From contig JBAXQK010000001.1 of the NCBI GenBank assembly GCA_037131775.1, positions 76,708 to 140,707 on the forward strand: a DNA stretch of 64,000 nt. The letters are read 5' to 3'. Shown piece by piece: positions 2,984 to 61,796 of this stretch. The notes below the pieces were generated by a model. The model saw nothing but the letters and a program-made list of their open reading frames with translations. It did no database searches and was not told the DNA's origin. This DNA is from Candidatus Uhrbacteria bacterium. Lineage in GTDB: Bacteria > Patescibacteriota > Patescibacteriia > UBA9934 > GWF2-40-263. The stretch's first letter is position 1. The number at the start of each line of letters is the position of its first letter. The position numbers and the translations under genes are program-made.

Positions 2984-5896
2984 ATGTCCGACCTCCTCCA
3001 AAACCTCAACCCGGAACAATCCGCCGCCGTGACGCACCGCGACGGGCCGCTTATGATCGTCGCCGGGGCCGGGACGGGGAAGACGACCGTGATTACGAAG
3101 CGGATCGCGTACCTGATCGAACAGGGACTGGCGAAGCCGGAGAATATCCTCGCGCTCACGTTTACGGACAAGGCAGCGGGCGAGATGGAGGAGCGCGTCG
3201 ATTGTCTTTTGCCGTACGGGTATCTTGAATTATCGATTTCGACGTTCCACGCGTTTTGCGAGAAGCTGCTGCGCGAATACGGCGTTGAGATCGGCCTGTC
3301 GCGCGACTTCCACGTTTCGTCGGAGCTCGACGCGTGGCTGCTTGCGCGTCGAAACCTCGAGCGATTCGAGCTCGATTATTATCGTCCGCTCGGGAACCCG
3401 ACGAAGTACCTGCGCGGCTTGCTTACGCATTTCTCGCGCGCCAAGGACGCAGCGATCGACCCGGCGGGGTATCTGGCGCATGCGAATGCTCGAAACGAAG
3501 CTAGCGGGACTAAAGTCCCTGGGAATCTTGATGAGACGGACGATGAAGCCGTCTCGGACATTAAGAGACTGACCGAGCTCGCCAACGGTTACAACACCTA
3601 TCAGTCGATTCTCCTCGAGAACGACACGCTCGACTTCGGCGACTTGCTCATGTACACGCTGAAGCTCCTCCGCGAGCGTCCGCGAGTCCTCGAGGCGCTG
3701 CGACGGCGGTACACCTACGTCCTCGTCGACGAGTTCCAGGATACGAACCTCACGCAGTACGAGATCGTCAAGCTGATCGCGGCTCCGCGGAACAATATCA
3801 CGATCGTGGGCGACGACGACCAGGCGGTGTACTCGTGGCGCGGGGCGACGATTGAGAATATCCTGACGTTTCAGACGGACTATCCGGACGCGAAGAAGAT
3901 CGTTCTGACGCAGAACTACCGGTCCGTCCAGAAGATCCTCGACCACGCGCACTCGTTCATCCAGGCGAACAATCCGCACCGGCTCGAGTCGATTGGTAAT
4001 CTCGACAAGAAGCTACAGTCCAATCGTACCGACGAGGGAATCGTCGGTCACATCCACGTGCCGACGCTCGATGAGGAGACCGAGGCCGTCGCCCAAAAAA
4101 TACTCGACCTACGTGTCGCGCATCCCGACATGAGCTGGAGCGACGTGGCCATTTTGTCGCGCTCGAACGATGCGGCCGTGCCGTTCCTCTCGACGATGGA
4201 GCGCCACGGGATCCCGTACCAGTTCATGGCCCTTCGCGGCCTGTACGCCAAGCCGATCGTCCTCGACCTCATGGCCTACCTCCGCGCCGTCGCGACTCCT
4301 CACGACAGCCCGTCGTTCTATCGCGTCCTCGCGCACCCGATGCACAACCTCCCGCATCTCGCCATCGCCGAGCTGTCGCAGTTCGCCAACCGAAAAGGGA
4401 AGTCGTTGTTCGACGCGTGCAACATGATTTTGGAGTTGAATACGATAAGTGCTCAAGCCATCGAGACGGTCCAGAACCTCCTTGTTCAGATCGAATCCTT
4501 CCGCCAGTCCGCCGCACACGGAAAGGTCTCAGAGCACTTCGTCAAAGTCGCCCGCGACGCCGGGTTCGTCGCGTTCGCCAACGATCTTCCCGAGCAGGAC
4601 AAGATGGACAACTTCCGCTATCTCCAACAGTTCTACGAGCGCCTCAAGCGGTTCGAGGCCTCGCACGACCATCCGATCCTCCGCAACTTCCTCGACGAGT
4701 TCCAGCAGGAGCTCGACGCGGGCGAGGAGGGATCGCTCACGTTCGATCCGGACGTCGGCCCGGACATGGTTCGCGTCATGACCGTCCACGCCTCGAAGGG
4801 CCTCGAGTTCCGCTTCGTGTTCGTCATCTCGATGATCGATCAACGCTTTCCGTCCGTGTCGCGCGCGGAGGCGATCTCGCTTCCAGACGGACTGACCGGA
4901 CCGTCGAAGTCGACGGACGGCGAAGACGACAAGCTCGCGCATCTCGAGGAAGAGCGCCGGTTGTTTTACGTCGCGATTACGCGCGCGAAGGAACAGCTCT
5001 ACCTCACGTCCGCCGACGACTACGGCGGATCGCGCAAGCGCAAGCTGTCGCGGTTCCTCACCGAGCTCGGGTTCGACAAGCCGGCCGGCCGAGACGCGAC
5101 GAAGGCCGACCCGTTCACCGACGACCCGTCCGTCCCGCCGCCGACCGCCGAAGCCCCAATCATCCACCTCCCAAAACAATTCTCCTTCACCCAACTCTCC
5201 GCCTTCAAAACCTGCCCGCTCCAATATAAATTCGCCCACGTCCTCAAAATCCCCGTCTTCGGAAAAGCCTCGTTCTCGTTCGGAAAGACCATGCACGAGA
5301 CGCTTCATCGTTACTTCGTCGAGTGGATGGACCAAGAATCGCCCGTCCCCCTCGACGATCTCTACCGGCTCTTCGACGAGAACTGGCAGGACGACTGGTA
5401 CGAGGACGATCTCGAACGCGAGAAGTTCCGCACGCAAGGCCGCGATCAGCTCAAAGCATTCTTCGACTTTCTCAAGGACCATCCGCCGGCTCCGGTGTAC
5501 CTCGAGCAAGACTTCACACTCAAGTTCGGCGACACTATCCTCAAGGGCCGCATCGACCGCATCGATACGGTCGAGGGCGGCGTCGAGATCATCGACTACA
5601 AGACGGGAACTCCGAAGGTCGACGGCAAGATCGACGCGTCCGACAAGGAACAGCTGTACCTCTACCAGATGGCCGCCCGCGACATCCTCGGTCTGAACGT
5701 CGTGAAACTCACCTACCACTATCTCCAGGACAACTCGCAGGTTTCCTTCATCGGCGACCCGGACGACCTGCTCAACCTCCAGGAAAAAATCCTCGACCGC
5801 GTGGACGGGATCAAGAAGAGCTCGTTCATCGCGACCCCGGGATTCCACTGCCAGTTCTGCGACTTCAAGGATATTTGCGAATTTAGACAACGTTAG
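2984..5896 (+). CDS. UvrD/PcrA-family SF1 helicase fused to a C-terminal PD-(D/E)xK nuclease with a Cas4/AddB-like Fe-S cysteine cluster (AddA-like helicase-nuclease)
   Basis: Walker A AGAGTGKT; UvrD motifs (TFT, DEFQDTN, QNYRS); C-terminal ...FKTCPLQYKF...IDYKTG...FHCQFCDFKDIC. Start taken at MSDLLQNLNPEQ. Confidence 0.8.
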   Translation: MSDLLQNLNPEQSAAVTHRDGPLMIVAGAGTGKTTVITKRIAYLIEQGLAKPENILALTFTDKAAGEMEERVDCLLPYGYLELSISTFHAFCEKLLREYGVEIGLSRDFHVSSELDAWLLARRNLERFELDYYRPLGNPTKYLRGLLTHFSRAKDAAIDPAGYLAHANARNEASGTKVPGNLDETDDEAVSDIKRLTELANGYNTYQSILLENDTLDFGDLLMYTLKLLRERPRVLEALRRRYTYVLVDEFQDTNLTQYEIVKLIAAPRNNITIVGDDDQAVYSWRGATIENILTFQTDYPDAKKIVLTQNYRSVQKILDHAHSFIQANNPHRLESIGNLDKKLQSNRTDEGIVGHIHVPTLDEETEAVAQKILDLRVAHPDMSWSDVAILSRSNDAAVPFLSTMERHGIPYQFMALRGLYAKPIVLDLMAYLRAVATPHDSPSFYRVLAHPMHNLPHLAIAELSQFANRKGKSLFDACNMILELNTISAQAIETVQNLLVQIESFRQSAAHGKVSEHFVKVARDAGFVAFANDLPEQDKMDNFRYLQQFYERLKRFEASHDHPILRNFLDEFQQELDAGEEGSLTFDPDVGPDMVRVMTVHASKGLEFRFVFVISMIDQRFPSVSRAEAISLPDGLTGPSKSTDGEDDKLAHLEEERRLFYVAITRAKEQLYLTSADDYGGSRKRKLSRFLTELGFDKPAGRDATKADPFTDDPSVPPPTAEAPIIHLPKQFSFTQLSAFKTCPLQYKFAHVLKIPVFGKASFSFGKTMHETLHRYFVEWMDQESPVPLDDLYRLFDENWQDDWYEDDLEREKFRTQGRDQLKAFFDFLKDHPPAPVYLEQDFTLKFGDTILKGRIDRIDTVEGGVEIIDYKTGTPKVDGKIDASDKEQLYLYQMAARDILGLNVVKLTYHYLQDNSQVSFIGDPDDLLNLQEKILDRVDGIKKSSFIATPGFHCQFCDFKDICEFRQR
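3506..3526. repeat. Family-2 palindromic element half/short copy (GGGACTAAAGTCCCTGGGAAT) in-frame inside the helicase gene
   Basis: Identical 21-mer to one arm of the full palindrome at 49642-49690. Encodes SGTKVPGN in the host frame. Confidence 0.6.
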
Positions 5897-5973
5897 GCCG
5901 CAGGCACGAATGCCGAGAGGCCGTAGGGGAACGCGTCCACCTACGGCCTCTCATCCTACGGCCTTCAATCCTT

Positions 5974-6276
5974 ATGGACTCCCTCAAGGGCCTGCTCTCA
6001 AACATGCTCGCGCGGCATCAGATCACCAAGCAGGTGACCACCGCGCGGATTATCGAGGAGGCGAACGCCGCGATCGCGGCGTTGCTTCCGGCTGGGCGAG
6101 AGGGCGACGCGACGGCGGTATCGGTCCGCGAGGGGACCGTCGCCGTGAGTTGTCGCAATGCCGGGGCGGCGGCGTTTCTGCACGATCGCGAGGAACCGAT
6201 TCTCGTCTCGATCAAGAAGGCGCTGCCCGGCGCGCAGGTCGATCGGGTGCGGACCAGGGTGAGTGGTGGGTGGTAA
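5974..6276 (+). CDS. Small DUF721/DciA-like protein (hypothetical)
   Basis: About 100 aa, a conserved-looking pattern of hydrophobic and Gly positions with a cysteine; sits beside a replication/repair gene. Weak assignment. Confidence 0.35.
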   Translation: MDSLKGLLSNMLARHQITKQVTTARIIEEANAAIAALLPAGREGDATAVSVREGTVAVSCRNAGAAAFLHDREEPILVSIKKALPGAQVDRVRTRVSGGW

Positions 6277-6322
6277 GTGGTTAGTGGTATACTACTCACT
6301 ACAAACCACTCACTACTCACCT
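6263..6322. repeat. GTGAGT/ACTCAC leader hairpin preceding the membrane-protein start
   Basis: GGTGAGTGGTGGGTGGTAAGTGGTTAGTGGTA / TACTACTCACTACAAACCACTCACTACTCACC inverted repeat. Ends ...CACCTGTG with GTG as the putative start. Confidence 0.6.
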
Positions 6323-6706
6323 GTGACCTTCAAGCAGTTTCTCATCCTGATGTTGATCACCACCGGCGCCGCGTGGTTCGCGTTCGGCGCCGTCGTGTGG
6401 TCCATCGATCCGACGCGGTCGGGGACGCTTGGGTTCGCGTTCTTCTACGCGACGCTCTCGCTCGCGCTCATCGGGACGCTTACCATCTGCGGGACCGGGC
6501 TCCGGACGCTGACGCACCGCGACGAGATTATCTCGCGCCACGTCTCCAAGGCATTCCGCCAGGCGTTTCTCTTTACCGTCCTCGTGGATGTTTCGCTCGC
6601 CCTCTCCGCGGAGGACTTCTTTCGATGGTGGACCGCCACGATCCTGATCCTGCTACTTGCCGTGGTCGAACTCGTGTTCATGAGCGCACAACGTCCGAGA
6701 GGTTAG
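6323..6706 (+). CDS. Hypothetical small integral membrane protein (GTG start assumed)
   Basis: Three or four hydrophobic segments (FLILMLITTGAAWFAFGAVVW...). The start is ambiguous because of the upstream hairpin. Confidence 0.35.
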   Translation: MTFKQFLILMLITTGAAWFAFGAVVWSIDPTRSGTLGFAFFYATLSLALIGTLTICGTGLRTLTHRDEIISRHVSKAFRQAFLFTVLVDVSLALSAEDFFRWWTATILILLLAVVELVFMSAQRPRG

Positions 6707-6773
6707 CCATAATTTTCACCTTGCGAAACCGGGCGTGAACGGGTAAAGTAACGAGGCTAAACGCCTTGTTTTT

Positions 6774-7826
6774 ATGTTCAACAAACTGCTCGGAAAATTC
6801 TCGAAGGACCTGGGGATCGACCTTGGGACCGCCAATACGCGGGTATTCGTGCGCGAGAAGGGAATCATGGTCAACGAGCCGTCCGTCGTCGCAGTCAACA
6901 CGCGCACCGACCAGATTCTGGCCGTGGGCTCCGACGCCCGCGACATGATCGGCAAGACCCCGCCGCACATCATGACCACGCGGCCGCTGCACAAGGGCGT
7001 TATCTCGGACTTCGAGGTGGCGGAGAAAATGCTGAAGTACTTCATCGACCGCGTGCACAAGGAATCGTTCACCATCGTCCCGCGCCCGCGCATCGTCATC
7101 GGCGTTCCACTCGAGACGACGGAGGTCGAGCGCAAGGCCATCGAGGACGCCGCGCTTTCTGCCGGCGCCCGCGAGGTGTTTCTCGTGGAGACGCCGATGC
7201 TCTCGGCCATCGGCGCGCGCCTTCCCATCACGGAGTCCGTCGGCATGATGGTCGTGGACATCGGCGGGGGGACGACGGAGATCGCCGTGCTGTCGCTCGG
7301 CGGAGTCGTCACGTGGAAGTCGCTTCCGATCGCCGGCGACGAGCTGAACAAGAACATTGTTCAGTACGCGCGCGACGTGTTCAACCTGCTGCTCGGCGAG
7401 CGCGTGGCCGAGGCGGTGAAGATTCGCATCGGGTCCGTGATCGATCAGACCGAGCCGCTCTCGATGGAGATGCGCGGACGCGACCTTCTCTCGGGGCTTC
7501 CGAAAGAGATCATCGTCACGGATTCCCAGATTCGCGAAGCGATCCAGCGATCCGTCGCCACCATCGTCCAGAATATCAAGGCAACTCTCGAGGTTACCCC
7601 TCCGGAGCTGGTCGCGGACATCTATGAGCGGGGAATCGTCCTTACCGGCGGAGGTTCCATGCTGCGTGGCATCGAACAGCTCATCGCGCGCCAGGCCGAG
7701 ATCCCGGTGCGCGTCGCGGAAGATCCTCTCACCTGTGCCGTTCGCGGCGCCGGAGCCCTGCTTGAAAACGACGCGCTTCTCAAGGACCTTGCCCTCCCTT
7801 CGGCGAGCCACGGAAGCATCATCTAG
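6774..7826 (+). CDS. mreB: Rod shape-determining actin homolog MreB
   Basis: GIDLGTANTRV, EPSVVA, DIGGGTTE actin-fold motifs. Confidence 0.95.
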   Translation: MFNKLLGKFSKDLGIDLGTANTRVFVREKGIMVNEPSVVAVNTRTDQILAVGSDARDMIGKTPPHIMTTRPLHKGVISDFEVAEKMLKYFIDRVHKESFTIVPRPRIVIGVPLETTEVERKAIEDAALSAGAREVFLVETPMLSAIGARLPITESVGMMVVDIGGGTTEIAVLSLGGVVTWKSLPIAGDELNKNIVQYARDVFNLLLGERVAEAVKIRIGSVIDQTEPLSMEMRGRDLLSGLPKEIIVTDSQIREAIQRSVATIVQNIKATLEVTPPELVADIYERGIVLTGGGSMLRGIEQLIARQAEIPVRVAEDPLTCAVRGAGALLENDALLKDLALPSASHGSII

Positions 7827-20460: not shown

Positions 20461-20502
20461 GTTCCCCCTCCTCATAGGGAGGAGGGGTCAGGGGTAGTCG
20501 TC
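20461..20502. repeat. Family-1 palindromic element copy A, intergenic (between gltX stop and peptidase start)
   Basis: GTTCCCCCTCCTCATAGGGAGGAGGGGTCAGGGGTAGTCGTC. The core CCCCTCCTC-ATAGG-GAGGAGGGG is a perfect palindrome. Confidence 0.85.
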
Positions 20503-34301: not shown

Positions 34302-35347
34302 AGATATTCCTTCAATTTCTCAAGCTGTACTTCGTTCGTAAACTCGTCGGCAGCCCGCCGATAGGCCGCTTCGCCCAGCCGCCGCCGTTCCTCGTCGCTC
34401 ATGGCCAAACGATACACCGCGTCCGCGAGCGCCGCAATGTCCCCGTCCTTGACGAGAAGGCCTGTCATTCCGTTGAGAACAGCCTCGTCGACGCCCCGCA
34501 TGTCCGTCGCAACCGACGGGACGCCATGCAGCGCGGCCTCGAGATACACCATGCCGAATCCTTCGCGGTCGACGGAATCCGCCACGACCGGCTCGACGAA
34601 TATGTCGGCGGCGGCGTAATGGTCGGAGAGCTGATCGTCGGCCACGTCGCGAGCGATCGTCACTCGGTCGTCGAGACCAAGCTCGGCGATGCGTCGCGCG
34701 ATCGTCTCGAGACAAGGGCCGTCGCCGACGATGTCGTATTGAACGGATAGGTCGGGATGGTCGCGCCGAAGCAGCGACATCGCGTCGAGAACGCGAAGGT
34801 GGCCTTTGCGAGGGACGAGCCGAGCAACGGTAAGCAAACGAAAGACGTGCGCGACGACCACCCCTGACCCCTCCTCCCTATGAGGAGGGGGAACATGTTT
34901 GGATATCGTCGGGTATACGACGACCGTCCTCTCAACCCCAAACTCATTCTTCACTTCCCTCTCCAACGCCTTCGAGTTCGCCACGACCACCTCCGCACCG
35001 CGCAGGACCATCCCAGCGACGATTCGCTTTGCCCAGCGCGTCTTAGCGAGCCCAATGTCCATCCCGTGAACGATCACGACGTACGACGTTCCCGTCATCC
35101 ACTTGAACGCAAGCGCCGCCGTCCCGATCGGCAAGACGTGGCTGACGACAATCGTCGTGTCAACACCGAGTGTCGACGCTTGGCGATCGTGAAAGAATTG
35201 TCGAAGCGCCTGCCACCACCGCGTCGACGGATCCAAGACGGCCACTTCCATCGAATCTGAAAAGTACGCCGCGAGATTCCCGAGGTATCTGGCCACTCCG
35301 CCCCGCGACGGCGCGTAATCAGTCGTGTATAGCCGTGTCTTCGGCAT
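34298..35347 (-). CDS. Family 4 (GT-B) glycosyltransferase carrying an in-frame family-1 element
   Basis: N-terminal ...YAPSRGGVARYL... and C-terminal EGFGMVYLEAALHGVPSVATD (E-x7-E-like). Start at MPKTRLYT. Confidence 0.75.
   Translation of the reverse strand: MPKTRLYTTDYAPSRGGVARYLGNLAAYFSDSMEVAVLDPSTRWWQALRQFFHDRQASTLGVDTTIVVSHVLPIGTAALAFKWMTGTSYVVIVHGMDIGLAKTRWAKRIVAGMVLRGAEVVVANSKALEREVKNEFGVERTVVVYPTISKHVPPPHREEGSGVVVAHVFRLLTVARLVPRKGHLRVLDAMSLLRRDHPDLSVQYDIVGDGPCLETIARRIAELGLDDRVTIARDVADDQLSDHYAAADIFVEPVVADSVDREGFGMVYLEAALHGVPSVATDMRGVDEAVLNGMTGLLVKDGDIAALADAVYRLAMSDEERRRLGEAAYRRAADEFTNEVQLEKLKEYL
34853..34894. repeat. Family-1 palindromic element copy D (reverse orientation on + strand, same orientation relative to host gene), in-frame in GT4 gene
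   Basis: Reverse complement equals copy B exactly. Encodes VPPPHREEGSGVVV between the two Rossmann-like halves. Confidence 0.9.
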
Positions 35348-54741: not shown

Positions 54742-55347
54742 ATGGAAACAGCAATTCAACACGCCGTCCTTTTGCCAAGGTCAGCCGAGATTCTCAGGCT
54801 CGAACAAAATTTCTCACGTTCTGGCCTGGGAAACCCATTTCTCGCATGGGCATGCCCAGTCGTTTGCGCGGCGGCCATCCTCCTGTTCTGCCGGGGCATC
54901 TGGGTCGAGATCGGTATGGCATTCGTTACTACGGCGTTCGCCTACCTGATGCTTCGAGATCTGCGAATCCTGTACTCTGCCATCAGGTACAGGCAGAACC
55001 CGTTCCTCAGCCTCGCAGAAGACGCGAACGAGAGGTTCCAGATCTTCAATCGGACGGCAGACGTCCTCTCCGCCTACGCGAAGAACGTCTCCTCCGGCAT
55101 TATCCGCGCAACGGCCACCGAGGACGCGATCGTTGCGGACCTCATCGCGGAAGGCGAGGCGCTTCGGGCCTACGCCCTGCGGCTCGAGAAGCTGTTCGAG
55201 GACGAAAGCGTCTCGCCGCTGATCGCCCAGAGGATCGTCTCGGAATACGCGCGAGACCTCCGCGAGATCGAGCAAAGACCTCGGGCGAACTTCAACAGGG
55301 TCCTGGACGAGATGAAACTCGCATCGGTACATCCCACGAACGGCTAA
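54742..55347 (+). CDS. Hypothetical membrane-anchored helical protein (paralog 1)
   Basis: Two N-terminal TM segments, then a helical/charged domain. AGGAGA RBS 7 nt upstream. C-terminus ...SVHPTNG shared with paralog 2. Confidence 0.35.
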   Translation: METAIQHAVLLPRSAEILRLEQNFSRSGLGNPFLAWACPVVCAAAILLFCRGIWVEIGMAFVTTAFAYLMLRDLRILYSAIRYRQNPFLSLAEDANERFQIFNRTADVLSAYAKNVSSGIIRATATEDAIVADLIAEGEALRAYALRLEKLFEDESVSPLIAQRIVSEYARDLREIEQRPRANFNRVLDEMKLASVHPTNG

Positions 55348-55949: not shown

Positions 55950-56720
55950 ATGCAGAAGCATTTTCCGAGCATCAGAACGCCATACGAGGCCAGGTCTGCG
56001 TCCGATGACGCGCGAAGAAACGCGAAAGGGATCGCGTTCAGCATTGGACTCGTGGTTGCCAACACGGCCAACATCGGATGGGTTGCAAACACGTGGTTCC
56101 ACATCCTGAGCTCCCATCCGACCGTCGGACTGTTCCTTGGGTCCTCTGCCGCCGGGACGTTCCTTCTCGCCTACCACGGCTGGCTTCTCGTCAGTCTCCG
56201 ACGCTCGTTCCATGCGCGGAAGATCGTCAAGAGCGTCGACGGCGGCACGGCATGCGATCCGAAGATCGCCGACGCGCTGACAATCGTCGGCATCTCGCTC
56301 GTCACGGCGGTCGAGCGGTACGACGCGATGGTCAAGCGGTGGAGGGCATACGAGGACGGCGTCGGGCTCGAGCTCATCGATCGCCTTCCCGACGAGGATA
56401 CGATCCGCGACGCGATGGTCACGGCGGGAGAGGAGCTGGAGGCGTACGCAAAGGGGATCGACCTTCTCTTCAGGCGCCGGGCCCTCATCAAGGAGCTGTC
56501 CGCGTCGGCCGTCACCAATCCGCTCCCGACGTTCTCATCGACCCTCGACAATCTCCGCCTCGCCGACGAGCGTCTCAAGAACGCGTTCGCCCTGCGCGAA
56601 AACCTCCCCGCCGTCGACCCCGAGCGCCTCCTCGCCGAGCCGCTCAACCTCGCCAAGCTCAACGCGCTGGACAAGGACATGGCAAGGATCCCCGTCCCTG
56701 CGCAACTCACGAACGGCTAA
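55950..56720 (+). CDS. Hypothetical membrane-anchored helical protein (paralog 2)
   Basis: Same architecture as 54742-55347. GGAG RBS upstream. C-terminus ...AQLTNG followed by the same terminator cassette. Confidence 0.35.
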   Translation: MQKHFPSIRTPYEARSASDDARRNAKGIAFSIGLVVANTANIGWVANTWFHILSSHPTVGLFLGSSAAGTFLLAYHGWLLVSLRRSFHARKIVKSVDGGTACDPKIADALTIVGISLVTAVERYDAMVKRWRAYEDGVGLELIDRLPDEDTIRDAMVTAGEELEAYAKGIDLLFRRRALIKELSASAVTNPLPTFSSTLDNLRLADERLKNAFALRENLPAVDPERLLAEPLNLAKLNALDKDMARIPVPAQLTNG

Positions 56721-56776
56721 ATGGCCGTTCTTTTTTTCGAAATCGAAAATCCGCCGCATTTGCGGCGGATTATTGT
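56703..56776. terminator. Bidirectional terminator region: + strand AACGGC-taaatg-GCCGTT + T7; - strand TCCGCCGC-attt-GCGGCGGA followed by a T-rich run
   Basis: Two adjacent perfect stems between the convergent paralog-2 and T4CP-like genes. Confidence 0.55.
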
Positions 56777-56778
56777 AT

Positions 56779-59013
56779 CTAGTCGAACTTGATCGTCTGG
56801 CCCGAGTAGACCGTACCGGTCTTCAGCGGAACCCAGCCGTCGTTGTCGTCGGATGGCGACGGGGCGATCGGCGCGGGTGGTTTCGGGGTTGGGGCGGGCG
56901 TCGTGACGGGAGTCGGAACCGGAGCCGGATTACTACCAACGCTCGGTGTTGGCAGTTGCGGTTTGGGAGCGACGGGTTGTTGTAGGTGTGGGTTTGAGTT
57001 GTTTGTAGTTTGTGGCGCTACGGGCGGCCGAGGCTTCGGATTCTGCAGGAACGCCTGTGGGGAATTCGGGCCGCCGGTGCCCTTGTTAGGGCGCTTGCGT
57101 CGCGTGTCCTTGCCTGGGACGAAGGGGCGCGGTCCTGTCGCGGCCGGGGTTGGCTGCGGTTGTCGCGGAGTCGACGGAGAGCCGTGCGTCGCGGCAACCG
57201 CGATCGGCGCGGCTGACGTGACCGTCGGGGGGCTGTTCAGCGGGGATGAGAGCATTTGGGACATGAAGTCGGTCGCGGGCGCTGGCGTCGAGACGACGGG
57301 CTTCGGCGCGACGACCACCCCTGACCCCTCCTGCCTATCAGGAGGGGAAACGTGCTTGATGACCGGGGCTGCCGGGGGCCTGGCGACTGGGGCCAATGCG
57401 GTGAGCGATACGGACGACACGGGACGGGCCGCCGCGACGGGCGGACGATCGACGGGCGCGCTGTCCAACGAGCGCAATGGCGGCGGAGGCGGGGACGGCG
57501 GGCGCCTCGTGTCCTTGCGATCCTTCCCTTTCGCGCGTTCCTCCTTCACAATCTCGATGCACTCCTCGCAATAGATCGGACGGCTCGTGTCGAGCTGCAC
57601 CGCGAGCGCGATATCCTTGTTGCAGCGCGAACACTTATAGTCGAACCTTGGCTTCTTCGATCCTTTCGCATCTTTCTTCTTTGCTTCCATCTCCGCGACC
57701 ATCTTCCCGATGGACTCGTCGTCGCCCATCCCGGTCCACTTCATGATCTTGTCGGCGATCTCCTCGCGCGGCGTCGTGTACCGCTCGCGGCTCACCTTGA
57801 TCACCTTTTCCTCCGACCCGGTGCGCTTGGCAATCGGCGGAAGCGTCATTGCGGAGAACGGCTGGCTCGTGACGCCGTCGATGAGCAGCTTGAGATAAAT
57901 GTTGTACTTCGGCAGGTTGATAATGTCCTCCGGCAAAAAGCGCGGGGCAAACTCCGTTTCCATGTACGCGGCGTCCGGCGAACCGACGCGGAAGGTGACG
58001 ATCGTTCCGACGTTTCCAAACACCGCCTCGCGTACCTCGTCGGAGAGCTGGGCGATGTACTGGTGGGCCATCGTCAGGCAGAGGCGGTACTTGCGCGCCT
58101 CGGACAGGATGCCGGCGAACGATTCCGTCGCGAAGTTCTGGAACTCGTCCACGTACATGTAAAAGTCCTTGCGCTCGTGCTCCGGCTGGTCCACGCGTTC
58201 CATGGCCGACAGCTGCAGCTTCGTGATCAGAAGCCCTCCGAGAAGGCGCATGTTGTCCTCGCCGATGCGGCCCTTCGACAGGTTGATGATCAGGATCTTC
58301 TGCTCGTCCATCAGCTGGCGGATGTTGATGGTCGACTTTACCTGGGCGACGATGTTGCGAATGACCGAGGCGGACAAAAACTGACCGATCTTGTTCTGGA
58401 TCGGGGCCACGGCCTCCTGCGCGTACTTCTCCTGGTAGCTGGCGAATTCCACCAGCCAGAACTGCTTCACCACCGGATCCTGCACGTTCGCGACGATCTT
58501 GCGTCGGAAGTCCGCGTCGGACAGCATGCGATTGATCCCAAGCAGCGTCGACCCCGGGTTGTCGAGCAGCGCGAGGATCGCGTTGTTCAAAATGTACTCC
58601 ATGCGCGCGCTCCAGAGGTTCTCCCAGAGCTTCTTGAACACGCCCATCATTCCGGACGCGACCAGGTGCTTCGTCTTCTCGCTGACCGTCTCCAAGATGT
58701 TGAATCCGATCGGAAAATCAAGGTCGGCCGGATTGAAGTAGATGACGTCGTTTATGCGCCAGCTCGGGATATAGTCGATAAGCCGCTCGGCCGTGTCGCC
58801 GTGCGGGTCGATGTACGCGCATCCGTGACCGGCATAGATGTCGGTAAGGATGAGATTTTCGAGCAGAACCGTCTTGCCCATGCCCGTCTTTCCGATCACG
58901 TACACGTGGCGGCGGCGGTCATCGGTCTTAACGCCAAATTTCCGCATCTGATTGCGGAAATTGGTGCGCGCGAAATAGTTTACCTCGTTCTCGTGATCGT
59001 GGGCGTAGCTCAT
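56779..59013 (-). CDS. Type IV secretion coupling-protein-like P-loop ATPase (TraD/TraG/VirD4 family), soluble, with C-terminal zinc ribbon and Pro-rich tail
   Basis: Walker A GKTGMGKT; DPHGD; Walker B YVDEFQNF; ...ARKYRLCLTMAHQYIAQL... like the T4CP C-terminal motif; CSRCN...CEEC ribbon. The tail contains family-1 copy F. Confidence 0.5.
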   Translation of the reverse strand: MSYAHDHENEVNYFARTNFRNQMRKFGVKTDDRRRHVYVIGKTGMGKTVLLENLILTDIYAGHGCAYIDPHGDTAERLIDYIPSWRINDVIYFNPADLDFPIGFNILETVSEKTKHLVASGMMGVFKKLWENLWSARMEYILNNAILALLDNPGSTLLGINRMLSDADFRRKIVANVQDPVVKQFWLVEFASYQEKYAQEAVAPIQNKIGQFLSASVIRNIVAQVKSTINIRQLMDEQKILIINLSKGRIGEDNMRLLGGLLITKLQLSAMERVDQPEHERKDFYMYVDEFQNFATESFAGILSEARKYRLCLTMAHQYIAQLSDEVREAVFGNVGTIVTFRVGSPDAAYMETEFAPRFLPEDIINLPKYNIYLKLLIDGVTSQPFSAMTLPPIAKRTGSEEKVIKVSRERYTTPREEIADKIMKWTGMGDDESIGKMVAEMEAKKKDAKGSKKPRFDYKCSRCNKDIALAVQLDTSRPIYCEECIEIVKEERAKGKDRKDTRRPPSPPPPPLRSLDSAPVDRPPVAAARPVSSVSLTALAPVARPPAAPVIKHVSPPDRQEGSGVVVAPKPVVSTPAPATDFMSQMLSSPLNSPPTVTSAAPIAVAATHGSPSTPRQPQPTPAATGPRPFVPGKDTRRKRPNKGTGGPNSPQAFLQNPKPRPPVAPQTTNNSNPHLQQPVAPKPQLPTPSVGSNPAPVPTPVTTPAPTPKPPAPIAPSPSDDNDGWVPLKTGTVYSGQTIKFD
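57313..57351. repeat. Family-1 palindromic element copy F (variant 2), in-frame in the T4CP-like gene tail
   Basis: GACCACCCCTGACCCCTCCTGCCTATCAGGAGGGGAAAC encodes (minus strand) VSPPDRQEGSGVVV. Confidence 0.9.
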
Positions 59014-60668
59014 ACGGGAAGGTTCGGGGGAATACCGTCGTCGACCCATCCTGGCGGCGGTCCGGGGAGCTCAACGTCGGCGGGAGGACCCATGTCAACC
59101 GCGTCGAGCCCGTCCTCGCCTTCCTCGTCAGGAGTAAACTGATGCGCGGATGCGGGAGCCTCGGACGGTTCCATTCCAGGCAGCCGGATTTCCGGCTCCT
59201 GCGCCGTTTCATGCGATTGAACGTGCGAACCATGGTCCTCATGCGCACCGCCCCCATGCGACTCCGCCACTCCACCCTGGTGCGCGGACAAAACCGGGGC
59301 ATGCGCGGAAACCGGCATGCGGGTCGGCATCGAGTGATGGTCGACGTCGTCGGATCCAATCGGCAGGCCAACCGGCGGCTCGGCGCGCTTGGCGTCGGCC
59401 TTCTTCACGAGCGGCGCCTTCACCGTGATCGACGGGAAATGCCACAGCGTGGCAAGCTCCTCGATGTTGAGCGTCCATGCTTCCGCGCCAATTCCCCATG
59501 ATCGGTTGCGGAACGCGCGAACGAGTCTCCCTTGCCTGGTGGCATACGTCCATGCCTGCCAGAAATAGTCGTCCTTCGGCGTTGCATCGCCGTGCAATCC
59601 GAGCGAGTTCATGTTCAGGTGCGCGAACTGGTTGAACATCCCCTTTACGAACGCGGTGCGGGCCTGCTTGTCGTACACGCCCTTCTTTCCAATGTACACC
59701 AGTCGCATCTTGGTCTTGAATCCCACCTTGCCGATCTTCTTGAGAACGCCCTCAACCTGCTCTTTCTCGGCCATGGTAATCTTGAACGCCTTCCACATGT
59801 CTGGATCCTGCGCCGGCTTCGCATGTGGGTCCGCCGCCGTGGAAAACCCAAACGCTTCCATCGCGATGTCCGCCGGAATCGAGAGCGTGTTGCTGATCAA
59901 GTTTTCAAACATCCCCGGCTTGTGCTTTGCCTCGTTGCCGAACACTTTGTTGATAAAGTCCTCGCCCGCCTTCTTCCAGTCGTTCCCGTTCGGCTTGATA
60001 ATGATTTGAATCCAAAAGTGCTCGCCGACCTTCATTTTTGCCAATTGTTCCAAAATCGGTCCGAGCGGATCCTTCAGCTCGCCGGAAATCTTGTCCTCGA
60101 AGTCGGTATACGTGCGCAACGGAAAAATTTCCGGTTTCTTCAGGATAAGCTCGCTTCCCCACGTATCCCAGGTATCGTTCGGATATTCTCCCGGAGCCCA
60201 GGATGCATAGTCCTCGACTTCGGTTATTTCCGCTTCCGGATATGCCGCGTAGATGCCCGCCTCAACGACGTCGCGATACCGGGTTTGCACTCGCACGTAA
60301 TACTGGACATAGCCCTCGGTCGACACGATCTCGAACGAGAACGGAGACTGAAACTTTCCAATGATCCACTTTTCCTTCCAGGTCAGGTTCGAATACGATC
60401 CCCAAAGCGAGGAGAACATGTTCTCGAGCGCCTTCGGGGTCTGCTCCGTCATGGGAGGAACGTCGATCGCCAGCAGAGCGAATTTGAGCGAGGCCGCGTA
60501 CTTTTCCTGACGGGTGACCTCCCAAACTTTAGTGATTCCCCACAATATCGTAATAACGATTGGGACCCATCCAAACCAAACGAGTATATCGTAGAGAACC
60601 ACGTCGATGGGTTGGTTCCAGAACAGCGGCGACGAAAGGGACGCAATGATGGATGCGGCGAAGAACAT
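59010..60668 (-). CDS. Hypothetical membrane protein (N-terminal TM helices, large extracytoplasmic domain, His-rich acidic C-terminal tail), translationally coupled to the T4CP-like gene
   Basis: Start at MFFAASIIASLSS... The only strong AAAGGAGGT seen in the window lies upstream. ATGA overlap with the downstream gene. C-terminus HGGGAHEDHGSHVQSHE. Confidence 0.4.
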   Translation of the reverse strand: MFFAASIIASLSSPLFWNQPIDVVLYDILVWFGWVPIVITILWGITKVWEVTRQEKYAASLKFALLAIDVPPMTEQTPKALENMFSSLWGSYSNLTWKEKWIIGKFQSPFSFEIVSTEGYVQYYVRVQTRYRDVVEAGIYAAYPEAEITEVEDYASWAPGEYPNDTWDTWGSELILKKPEIFPLRTYTDFEDKISGELKDPLGPILEQLAKMKVGEHFWIQIIIKPNGNDWKKAGEDFINKVFGNEAKHKPGMFENLISNTLSIPADIAMEAFGFSTAADPHAKPAQDPDMWKAFKITMAEKEQVEGVLKKIGKVGFKTKMRLVYIGKKGVYDKQARTAFVKGMFNQFAHLNMNSLGLHGDATPKDDYFWQAWTYATRQGRLVRAFRNRSWGIGAEAWTLNIEELATLWHFPSITVKAPLVKKADAKRAEPPVGLPIGSDDVDHHSMPTRMPVSAHAPVLSAHQGGVAESHGGGAHEDHGSHVQSHETAQEPEIRLPGMEPSEAPASAHQFTPDEEGEDGLDAVDMGPPADVELPGPPPGWVDDGIPPNLPV

Positions 60669-60739
60669 AGTAACGGAAGTATAGCATACCTCCTTTAAAG
60701 AAAAAAACGCCGGTGACCGACGTTTGAGACAAGAACCAA

Positions 60740-61657
60740 TCAATGGTTCGGAGCGCACTTGGGCTGACAGTATCCGGGGTGGCAGTTCGGCCTGCAAATT
60801 TCTTTCGGGTCGCAGGAATCGTCGTCGACCTTCGGCTGGCGCGCGATCATCTCGGCGCTGAAGGATGAGAGCGGGAGACCCTCCAGGATCGGTCGCAGGC
60901 CGGCGTGCACGTTGCCGGTCGGGAACGCGCGGCCGAAGACGCAGGGAAATGAGTCGCCGTTGATGTCCACGGCCAGGCGACCCTTGTAGCACTGGCCACA
61001 GAGGGCGGCCATCGGGTCTTCCTTCCACCCCGTGCTGCCATCGCGCTCGCCGCGACCGACCGCGCGAACGTGGTCGACGCCGACCTCCGTGACGCCAAGC
61101 GAACGAACGTACGCCAGCGCCTGGTCGATCCGGTCCGCGTTCTCGCCCTGTTCAATGACGCCCACGCGCACTTTGACGCCGCGGTCGACGAGATTGCGGA
61201 TCCCCTTCTCCGTGGCCGCGTGGCTCCCCGAGCGCATCGTGACGCGGTCGTGGGTATCGGCATCCTCGGCGTAGACGGAGACGGCGACGCGGGTTCCGAG
61301 CTCGCGGAAGAGGTCGGCCACGTCCTCCTTGAGGAATGTCGCGTTGGTGAACACCTCCACGTCCATCCCCGAGGCGTGCGCGGCGCGCAGCAGGGTCTGG
61401 AAGGACGGGTGGAGGAGCGGCTCTCCGCCGATGAACTGCACCCCCTTGCATCCGACGTCTCGTGCCTCGCCGATGAGGCCGATCCAGTCCTGCTCGGTCA
61501 TCGTGCCGGTCAGCTCCGCACTGGGGCTCGACTGGACATAGCAGTGCTGACAGGCGAGGTTGCACCGCTTGGTGACCTCCAGCCAGAGAAACTCGAGCAG
61601 CGGGACGGTCTGGAGCGGGAGAGGCGCGGAACAGTCTTGGGTCTGCGGGGTTTGCAT
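60740..61657 (-). CDS. Radical SAM enzyme with C-terminal Cys-rich auxiliary-cluster (SPASM/twitch-like) domain
   Basis: CNLACQHC (CxxxCxxC). C-terminal CGQCYKG...SFPCVF...CDPKEICRPNCHPGYCQPKCAPNH. Confidence 0.75.
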   Translation of the reverse strand: MQTPQTQDCSAPLPLQTVPLLEFLWLEVTKRCNLACQHCYVQSSPSAELTGTMTEQDWIGLIGEARDVGCKGVQFIGGEPLLHPSFQTLLRAAHASGMDVEVFTNATFLKEDVADLFRELGTRVAVSVYAEDADTHDRVTMRSGSHAATEKGIRNLVDRGVKVRVGVIEQGENADRIDQALAYVRSLGVTEVGVDHVRAVGRGERDGSTGWKEDPMAALCGQCYKGRLAVDINGDSFPCVFGRAFPTGNVHAGLRPILEGLPLSSFSAEMIARQPKVDDDSCDPKEICRPNCHPGYCQPKCAPNH

Positions 61658-61740: not shown

Positions 61741-61775
61741 AGCAAAGAACGCACCGATTGCAACACAATCAGTGC
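61741..61775 (-). terminator. Rho-independent terminator after secF (minus strand)
   Basis: GAACGCAC-(17-nt loop)-GTGCGTTC stem. On the minus strand it is followed by TTTGCTTTCT. Confidence 0.5.
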
Positions 61776-61796
61776 GTTCTGTAAATACCTCATGAC

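Follow-up and report, generated by a model that had tools for sequence, protein, structure and literature searches.

Introduction

Type IV coupling proteins (T4CPs) of the VirD4/TrwB/TraD type (PF10412, PF02534 and PF12696) are known structurally from TrwB (PDB 1E9R/1E9S), DotL (6SZ9) and Cag-beta (8DOL). The tiny genomes of Patescibacteria retain thousands of VirD4-like genes away from any type IV secretion system (T4SS), and a survey of this phylum found 5,713 VirD4-like homologues in 2,918 genomes (Quinonero-Coronel et al., 2025; PMC12102498). Of these t4cp genes 148 lie near virB4, relaxases are very rare, and the role of the genes is debated; the authors' verdict is that exaptation 'cannot be ruled out' (PMC12102498). 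Also described is the TrsD+TrsE pair of pGO1/pSK41, in which a small protein is encoded just 5' of its ATPase (PMC12102498). Here we describe an ATPase to which the VirD4/TrwB/TraD-type T4CPs are the nearest class. It is encoded in a stretch of 64,000 nucleotides from Candidatus Uhrbacteria bacterium (assembly GCA_037131775.1, contig JBAXQK010000001.1, positions 76,708 to 140,707 of the forward strand; hereafter the window), directly 3' of the gene for a 552-amino acid membrane protein of the DUF8128 family (PF26449). We argue that the two genes probably constitute a conserved bicistronic operon for a two-polypeptide ('split') T4CP, and that a neighbouring radical S-adenosylmethionine (rSAM) gene, which a sequence-only reading of this DNA had placed in one cluster with them, appears to stand apart.

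Results

The DUF8128 and ATPase genes are a conserved chromosomal pair

The DUF8128 gene (59010-60668) and the ATPase gene (56779-59013) lie on the minus strand, as does the rSAM gene (60740-61657), and all three open reading frames (ORFs) have the coordinates reported in the sequence-only reading. Each of the three proteins has homologues labelled Candidatus Uhrbacteria, and the rSAM protein matches an NCBI entry under that name at 100% identity. The translational coupling that it proposed was likewise borne out, since the TGA of the 552-amino acid ORF overlaps the ATPase ATG (GTATGAGC, 59010-59013). To define the setting of the pair we used 80 loci at the species level, each with a gene for a relative of the 552-amino acid protein, and searched their ORFs with the window proteins. 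The ATPase gene is found directly 3' of the DUF8128 gene in 70 of the 72 evaluable loci, both misses being contig ends, and the intergenic distance is mostly -4 to +8 nt. The suggestion that the ATPase has a dedicated membrane partner is thus supported, with the membrane-anchored DUF8128 protein as that partner.

The standard gene order is secD-secF-DUF8128-ATPase, with mnmA and era further on, and dozens of species have the pair at this place in the chromosome (secDF ... mnmA ... era). In every locus with orthologues of all six syntenic proteins (39/39) none of the other five is as well conserved as the ATPase core, which has a median identity of 79%, versus 51-63% for DUF8128, SecF, MnmA, SecD and Era. 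Housekeeping functions account for all ten of the largest genes in the window, among them those for an AddA-like helicase-nuclease, a penicillin-binding protein, ClpB, PriA, AlaRS, MurJ and GluRS. The flanking genes of the pair, as examined, are housekeeping genes too, and we saw no relaxase, no VirB4-type T4SS gene and no integrase in these flanks. The DUF8128-ATPase pair is a core chromosomal operon and is not mobile.

The ATPase is a soluble protein of the TrwB/VirD4 type

The 744-amino acid ATPase had been called TraD/VirD4-like, and it indeed matches the Pfam families TrwB_AAD_bind (41.2 bits), T4SS-DNA_transf (27.7 bits) and TraG-D_C (25.8 bits), in each case above the gathering cut-off (20.5, 20.1 and 22, respectively). 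A nucleotide-binding domain with an inserted helical domain spans residues ~30-430. It contains the Walker A motif GKTGMGKT (residues 41-48; 58870-58893, minus strand) and a Walker B-like YVDEF (residues 287-291), and in the family alignment GKTGMGKT and VDEF are invariant. The zinc ribbon and long Pro-rich tail noticed earlier are both present after this domain. The ribbon, CxxC-x17-CxxC (C461, C464, C482 and C485; 57559-57633, minus strand), gives a weak zf_Tbcl_2 match, and CxxC...CxxC recurs in 64 of 70 ATPase orthologues. The tail is variable; it carries a basic patch and a conserved C-terminal G-x-x-x-x-GQ-x-I-x-FD motif. No hydrophobic or transmembrane segment was found in the 744 residues.

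Among proteins of solved structure, TrwB and DotL are the nearest in sequence. In a Foldseek search with the ATPase model the top 34 matches were TrwB chains (E down to 4.5e-10, TM-score 0.47-0.55); TrwB was followed by DotL and Cag-beta (which completed the top 37) and then by HerA, with no VirB4 chain in the top 50. A FtsK/HerA identity can be set aside, as the DUF87/HerA score of 20.8 bits falls below the cut-off of 23.2, HerA structures rank below T4CPs, and there was no match to FtsK. Against the NCBIfam models for TraD, CD1115 VirD4-like, TrbC, CedB and CedD the best score was 41.6 bits, compared to a cut-off of 366, and PADLOC returned a weak mad8 match. We conclude that the ATPase is a soluble coupling ATPase of the TrwB/VirD4 type, and it almost certainly belongs to the same gene class as the orphan VirD4-like t4cp genes of Patescibacteria.

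Seven related genomes contain a second T4CP-like paralogue of ~470 amino acids, without the zinc ribbon and Pro-rich tail, directly 3' of the first ATPase gene (positions 5509-6924 of locus L009; also L011, L023, L024, L029, L041 and L063). The window has no such paralogue.

The membrane protein belongs to the DUF8128 family and has a cytoplasmic domain

The 552-amino acid protein is assigned to DUF8128 through its homologues: of 120 listed homologues, 116 have PF26449 as a precomputed annotation, among them the homologue with 94% identity, and the UniRef name of one homologue is a 'DUF8128 domain' protein. Our local Pfam scan of the protein gave no match, and the PF26449 model was probably missing from that copy of Pfam. 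The family is large, with 2,670 clusters at 50% identity (E<=1e-3) in a scan of 1.84 billion representative proteins. A scan of IMG/VR was negative, and DUF8128 received no mention in the literature searched. Homology to TrsD was considered and rejected on a negative hhalign comparison.

An AlphaFold model built from 118 sequences has a mean predicted local distance difference test (pLDDT) score of 80, with a core above 90, and consists of one long N-terminal helix, an alpha/beta domain (residues 60-440) and a disordered His/acidic/Pro tail. In a Foldseek search of the PDB, the 13 best matches were all TrwK/VirB4 chains (R388), with probability 0.96-1.0 and TM-score ~0.3. A single N-terminal hydrophobic segment is found in 116 of 118 family members. 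In the window protein this is the transmembrane helix at residues ~20-48 (60525-60611, minus strand), and, since acidic residues precede it and K/R-rich sequence follows it, an N-out/C-in topology is predicted. The large domain had been taken for extracytoplasmic; it follows the single helix and the K/R-rich stretch, and elsewhere it is fused to cytoplasmic ATPases. On the basis of these topology signals and fusions, the DUF8128 domain is cytoplasmic, and the earlier assignment is reversed.

The description of a His/acidic tail stood in part: an acidic/Pro motif is kept in close relatives and PPNLPV is conserved at the C-terminus, but the His-rich stretch varies by lineage. The PPNLPV motif (59013-59030, minus strand) runs into the ATGA at which the ATPase gene starts, and xNLP[VIMT] is located at or near the extreme C-terminus of the DUF8128 protein in most family members and loci.

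Fused and split relatives occur in phages and on plasmids

Searches with tblastn against phage records gave no match to DUF8128, the divergence being too great, but profiles and structure did find phage fusions. In the phage protein family phrog_5156 (824 positions), residues 93-353 of DUF8128 align to profile positions 62-309 and residues 30-425 of the ATPase to positions 406-806. Likewise, gp156 of Bacillus phage G (825 amino acids) is a DUF8128-ATPase fusion, with hidden Markov model E-values of 6.8e-16 and 6.6e-54 for the two parts, a Foldseek E-value of 2e-16 and an hhalign probability of 97% for the DUF8128 part. It begins with the DUF8128 domain and has no N-terminal transmembrane helix; its hydrophobic windows are internal only. 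On an Embleya plasmid, a protein of 812 amino acids combines a transmembrane helix, an RRRR stretch, a short DUF8128-like segment (a weak match, E 0.0036) and a T4CP-like ATPase, and is encoded among genes for PrgI/VirB3, a 643-amino acid ATP-binding protein, a replication-relaxation protein and NlpC/P60. A split pair is found on a Halorussus plasmid, where a 376-amino acid DUF8128-like gene (hhalign 95%, 263 aligned columns) overlaps the start of the gene for a 1007-amino acid ATPase.

The surroundings of gp156 (phage G 86999-98198; locus L085) include gp153, which is TrbL/VirB6-like, and gp155, which matches TraG P-loop and AAA_10 and is annotated as VirB-like. With gp153, gp155 and gp156 encoded close to one another, this jumbo phage has a minimal set of T4SS-like genes. 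Homologues of gp156 are also carried by SPO1-group and B. cereus phages, and no paper on the phage homologues turned up in the literature searched.

The region comprises two independent units

The sequence-only reading described a single cluster of three co-oriented genes bounded by terminators on both sides. The outer boundaries hold: there are strong hairpins 5' of the rSAM gene, where the secF terminator lies (61746-61780, minus strand; folding z-score -5.3), and at the 3' end of the DUF8128-ATPase operon, where the hairpin terminator is bidirectional (56748-56771; folding z-score -5.4). A third, terminator-like hairpin was overlooked, however. It has a 9-bp stem followed by U7 and is located directly 3' of the rSAM stop codon (60705-60725, minus strand). 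As this hairpin lies between the rSAM stop and the DUF8128 gene, the supposed cluster is split, and the region is two independent units, namely the rSAM gene and the DUF8128-ATPase operon.

The start of the operon also differs from what had been proposed. The strong site that had been read before the 552-amino acid ORF does not fit, in that the GGAGG of AAAGGAGGT (60693-60689) sits 20 nt from the ATG at 60668, nor is such a motif the only one, because AAGGAGG is present 17 times in the window. As a Shine-Dalgarno sequence for DUF8128, AAAGGAGGT was ruled out by this spacing, which is too long, and by its absence from close relatives. A better candidate signal is an extended -10-like box, TGCTATACT (60678-60686, minus strand), 9 nt 5' of the DUF8128 ATG. 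The corresponding TG-n-TA[TC]A[AC]T box (window 60666-60690) is at the same place in 4/4 aligned genomes, and the three aligned relatives (L001-L003) retain it while having no GGAGG or other Shine-Dalgarno sequence 5' of DUF8128. The conserved box, together with the missing Shine-Dalgarno sequence in relatives, suggests that the operon is transcribed from a separate promoter into an mRNA that is leaderless or has a very short leader.

The rSAM gene appears to be a strain-specific insertion

The rSAM identity of the ORF at 60740-61657 was confirmed by the Pfam family Radical_SAM (PF04055, E 3e-23). The product, of 305 amino acids, contains the CX3CX2C core and CGxC...PC, a twitch or partial-SPASM motif, and its C-terminus is a tail of CxP repeats. 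In the family alignment C32, C36 and C39 of the core are invariant and the auxiliary-cluster-like CGxC...PC is conserved, while the number of CxP repeats in the tail varies. The SPASM-like Cys-rich C-terminus reported earlier is thus present as CGxC...PC and the CxP tail, but Pfam SPASM (PF13186) was undetected in the window protein; in relatives it gives weak matches. Scores against NCBIfam families were all far under cut-off (e.g. 102 bits vs 625). A prokaryotic viperin (pVip) was ruled out, as PADLOC aligns the generic core only (residues 27-159 to profile positions 5-131 of 257). The family is small and scattered, comprising 256 proteins at E<=0.001 among 1,909 word-sharing candidates scored; three relatives are 62-68% identical and the rest <=48%, including proteins from Streptomyces, Pseudomonas and Nitrosomonas.

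None of the 80 loci has an rSAM homologue (E<=1e-5) at a distance of up to 10 kb from DUF8128. In the relatives whose DUF8128 proteins are 94, 83 and 80% identical to that of the window, secF is followed by a spacer of 135-165 bp and then the DUF8128 start, with no rSAM gene; in the window, the secF-DUF8128 spacer contains the entire rSAM gene and its terminator-like hairpin. The six contexts of rSAM homologues that we looked at share no partner gene, and DUF8128 or a T4CP was never next to the homologue in these other genomes. In Streptomyces the neighbours are a protein of no assigned family and an AAA_23 ATPase, with a transposase nearby, and other contexts include a TCAD9-domain protein, a phage integrase at an island edge and an IS110 transposase. 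In another Patescibacterium the neighbours are YqeY and a T4SS_pilin/Big_5 giant surface protein. Neighbourhood conservation had been set beforehand as a criterion for membership in a module, and at 0/80 loci it fails for rSAM. Taken together, the 80 loci, the absence from the closest relatives, the hairpin of its own and the homologues in mobile or defence-type contexts point to an independent gene, probably horizontally acquired, monocistronic and accessory, that is a strain-specific insertion in this Uhrbacteria lineage with no functional link to its neighbours. A partnership of rSAM with the DUF8128-ATPase pair is ruled out by the 80 loci, the closest relatives and the six homologue contexts.

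Two further observations concern this gene. In locus L082 (1-9762) the closest Patescibacterium homologue of rSAM is divergent to a gene for a 616-amino acid T4SS_pilin/Big_5 protein and one for a surface protein of >3,400 amino acids; the adjacency to the T4SS_pilin/Big_5 protein may be coincidence. The sequence-only reading had found no precursor-peptide ORF beside the rSAM gene, and indeed the flanks of 71 bp and 139 bp are too short for any ORF. The CxP...CxP tail (window 60740-60830) has from 0 to ~10 repeats among homologues, and such variation is not what a fixed Fe-S binding site would show. It is conceivable that the tail is a fused, self-modified substrate, which would account for the absent precursor gene.

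Other features of the window

A repeat of ~42 nt, GTT[CT]CCCCTCCT[CG]ATAGG[GC]AGGAGGGGTCAGGGGTGGTCGTCG, which consists of a palindromic hairpin and a tail, occurs 6 times in the window compared to 0 expected. The copies lie at 20465, 28230 and 28485 on the plus strand and at 34868, 53180 and 57325 on the minus strand. Two exact copies are in frame within genes, where they lengthen both the MnmA-like ORF and the ATPase, the latter in its Pro-rich tail, by the same peptide, VSPPDRQEGSGVV. The repeat is also present in the 80%-identity relative (L002:5891-5921), and is not found in the 94%-identity relative (L001). The repeat resembles a small palindromic element that is mobile and can be tolerated within genes.

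Lastly, two plus-strand ORFs (54742-55347 and 55950-56720), which are convergent to the ATPase gene, are weakly similar to each other (BLASTP E 1e-4) and both end in ...TNG. Each is followed by a near-identical terminator, GAACGGCTAA[T/A]TGGCCGTTC, and neither has a Pfam match on record. They were undetected in the 94%-identity relative, which instead has genes for proteins of 130 and 136 amino acids at this place.

Discussion

The fixed pairing of the two genes, their fusion in other genomes, the fold assignments, the topology signals and the strong conservation all argue for a conserved bicistronic operon that probably encodes a split T4CP. In such a protein the DUF8128 subunit would give the membrane anchor that canonical T4CPs have N-terminally and would add a cytoplasmic domain with a predicted VirB4/TrwK-like fold, and the second subunit would be a TrwB-type hexameric ATPase extended by a zinc ribbon and by a long, flexible tail. 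DUF8128 would tether the ATPase ring at the membrane, possibly via its conserved C-terminal NLPV peptide, and the ring could then, by ATP hydrolysis, recruit and push a macromolecule (DNA or protein) to a membrane channel. Our tentative first choice for this channel would be a Patescibacterial VirB4/VirB6-type T4SS encoded elsewhere, and it is also possible, though rather doubtful, that the pair acts as an exapted, stand-alone translocase independent of any T4SS. The earlier idea of a reduced type IV-like apparatus stands as far as homology and the gene contexts of the fused relatives carry it, and no further. More speculatively, there could be a distinct T4CP lineage in which DUF8128 is the obligatory subunit for membrane anchoring, so far unrecognised. 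The two modules of this lineage would be fused in Bacillus phages and on an actinomycete plasmid, split on a haloarchaeal plasmid, and domesticated in Uhrbacteria and other Patescibacteria as a core, very highly conserved chromosomal motor for a non-conjugative transport process of importance in episymbiosis; we regard this as less likely than not.

Several results weigh against a split T4CP that serves a T4SS. The ten largest window genes include none for VirB4, VirB6 or a relaxase, and in S. epibionticum, the one Patescibacterium tested by transposon sequencing (Tn-seq), the T4SS genes are reported to be essential and the t4cp homologue not to be (PMC12102498), which argues that this homologue is not obligatory for that T4SS. 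Confidence in the ATPase model is moderate (pLDDT 67.5). The likeness of DUF8128 to VirB4 is at the fold level only, with a TM-score of ~0.3 and the matched region of VirB4 not reported. DUF8128 has no sequence match in the PDB, and hhalign found no similarity either to TrsD of pSK41 (probability 0.6%) or to the 643-amino acid Embleya ATP-binding protein, taken as likely VirB4-type (0.2%). Also, a physical complex of the two proteins, the hexamer, the substrate and the channel are points that we infer.

Among other explanations, the most serious is that the pair is an exapted nucleic-acid translocase that works without a T4SS, for example in DNA uptake, in chromosome or plasmid handling at the membrane, or in DNA export to the host cell. 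T4CPs are akin to the FtsK/HerA DNA pumps (PMC12857230), the zinc ribbon, the basic patch of the tail and the very high conservation of the ATPase would suit such a role, and with 148 of 5,713 Patescibacterial t4cp genes near virB4 and relaxases rare, exaptation has been raised by the authors of the survey themselves (PMC12102498). The fused relatives, however, lie in T4SS-like clusters, and t4cp genes are often distant from virB4 in genuine T4SSs too (PMC12102498), so that we hold this role to be somewhat unlikely, judging from sequence features and gene context. The position of secD-secF immediately upstream, co-oriented in ~64-65 of 74 evaluable loci, could instead mean that the pair is an accessory motor or receptor of Sec export that works with SecDF and not with a T4SS. 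Yet the strong secF terminator and the separate -10-like box intervene, distant lineages keep the pair without secDF (L069-L078), and the genes around the fused homologues are VirB4-like and VirB6-like rather than Sec genes. As the entire region including mnmA and era is syntenic, the adjacency may be mere inherited gene order; the case for a functional link to SecDF is a weak one, though such a link is possible, and Sec export as the function of the pair is improbable.

That the relatives outside the candidate phyla radiation (CPR) are found on plasmids and in phages, and that a small palindromic element is inserted in the ATPase tail, might suggest that the pair is left over from an integrated conjugative element or prophage, is decaying and has no cellular role. 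A remnant would hardly be expected to keep a constant chromosomal position in dozens of species, intact Walker motifs and an ATPase core more conserved than five syntenic proteins; there is no integrase or relaxase nearby, the IMG/VR scan was negative, and we consider this explanation very unlikely. Least probable of all, to the point of being negligible, is a joint peptide or protein modification and secretion module of rSAM, membrane protein and ATPase, as the sequence-only reading had proposed. The three genes are co-oriented and close together, and a protein substrate is conceivable since no precursor gene is nearby, but rSAM is outside the conserved pair: none of the 80 related loci has it, nor do the closest relatives, a hairpin separates it from the other two genes, and its homologues elsewhere are never beside DUF8128 or a T4CP.

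The preferred explanation of a split T4CP has consequences for how these genes are annotated and studied. The fixed DUF8128 partner, the fusions elsewhere and a conservation above that of Era, SecD and MnmA replace what was an orphan annotation by a two-protein machine that is well defined and can be tested, and a distinct domesticated T4CP lineage, if true, would account for the thousands of 'orphan' t4cp genes in the phylum. Treating rSAM as a stray insertion removes a false lead, in that an rSAM-modified secretion substrate need not be sought at this locus.

As for known systems, the rSAM protein finds its best sub-threshold NCBIfam matches among the rSAM/SPASM and twitch peptide maturases (StsB, ScmF, AlbA, PqqE). 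It has the CX3CX2C core in common with them and carries the CGxC...PC motif, but it differs in having no Pfam SPASM match and no conserved precursor or partner, and in its varying CxP repeat count. For the pair, the survey of orphan t4cp genes makes no mention of a DUF8128 partner or of secDF synteny ('SecD' is absent from its text; PMC12102498). The ATPase shares with the T4CPs the Walker A and B motifs, TraG-D_C and a P-loop domain into which a helical domain is inserted, with TrwB the best match by both sequence and structure. In contrast to T4CPs, it has no N-terminal transmembrane domain, the anchor being on DUF8128, a protein of its own; it carries, in addition, a zinc ribbon and a Pro-rich tail of ~250 amino acids; and it is not beside a relaxase or virB4 but is a core chromosomal, highly conserved gene. 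VirB4/TrwK is the source of the 13 best structural matches of DUF8128, a similarity without a sequence signal. The TrsD+TrsE pair is analogous in its layout, but DUF8128 lacks sequence similarity to TrsD, and its partner ATPase is of the TrwB type. Closest in architecture are the fused DUF8128-T4CP proteins (phrog_5156, gp156, those of the SPO1 group and the Embleya protein). They are single polypeptides on mobile elements, with a low sequence identity (~20-33%), and differ among themselves in the N-terminal transmembrane helix, which gp156 lacks and the Embleya protein has, but they consist of the same two modules in the same order as the pair described here.

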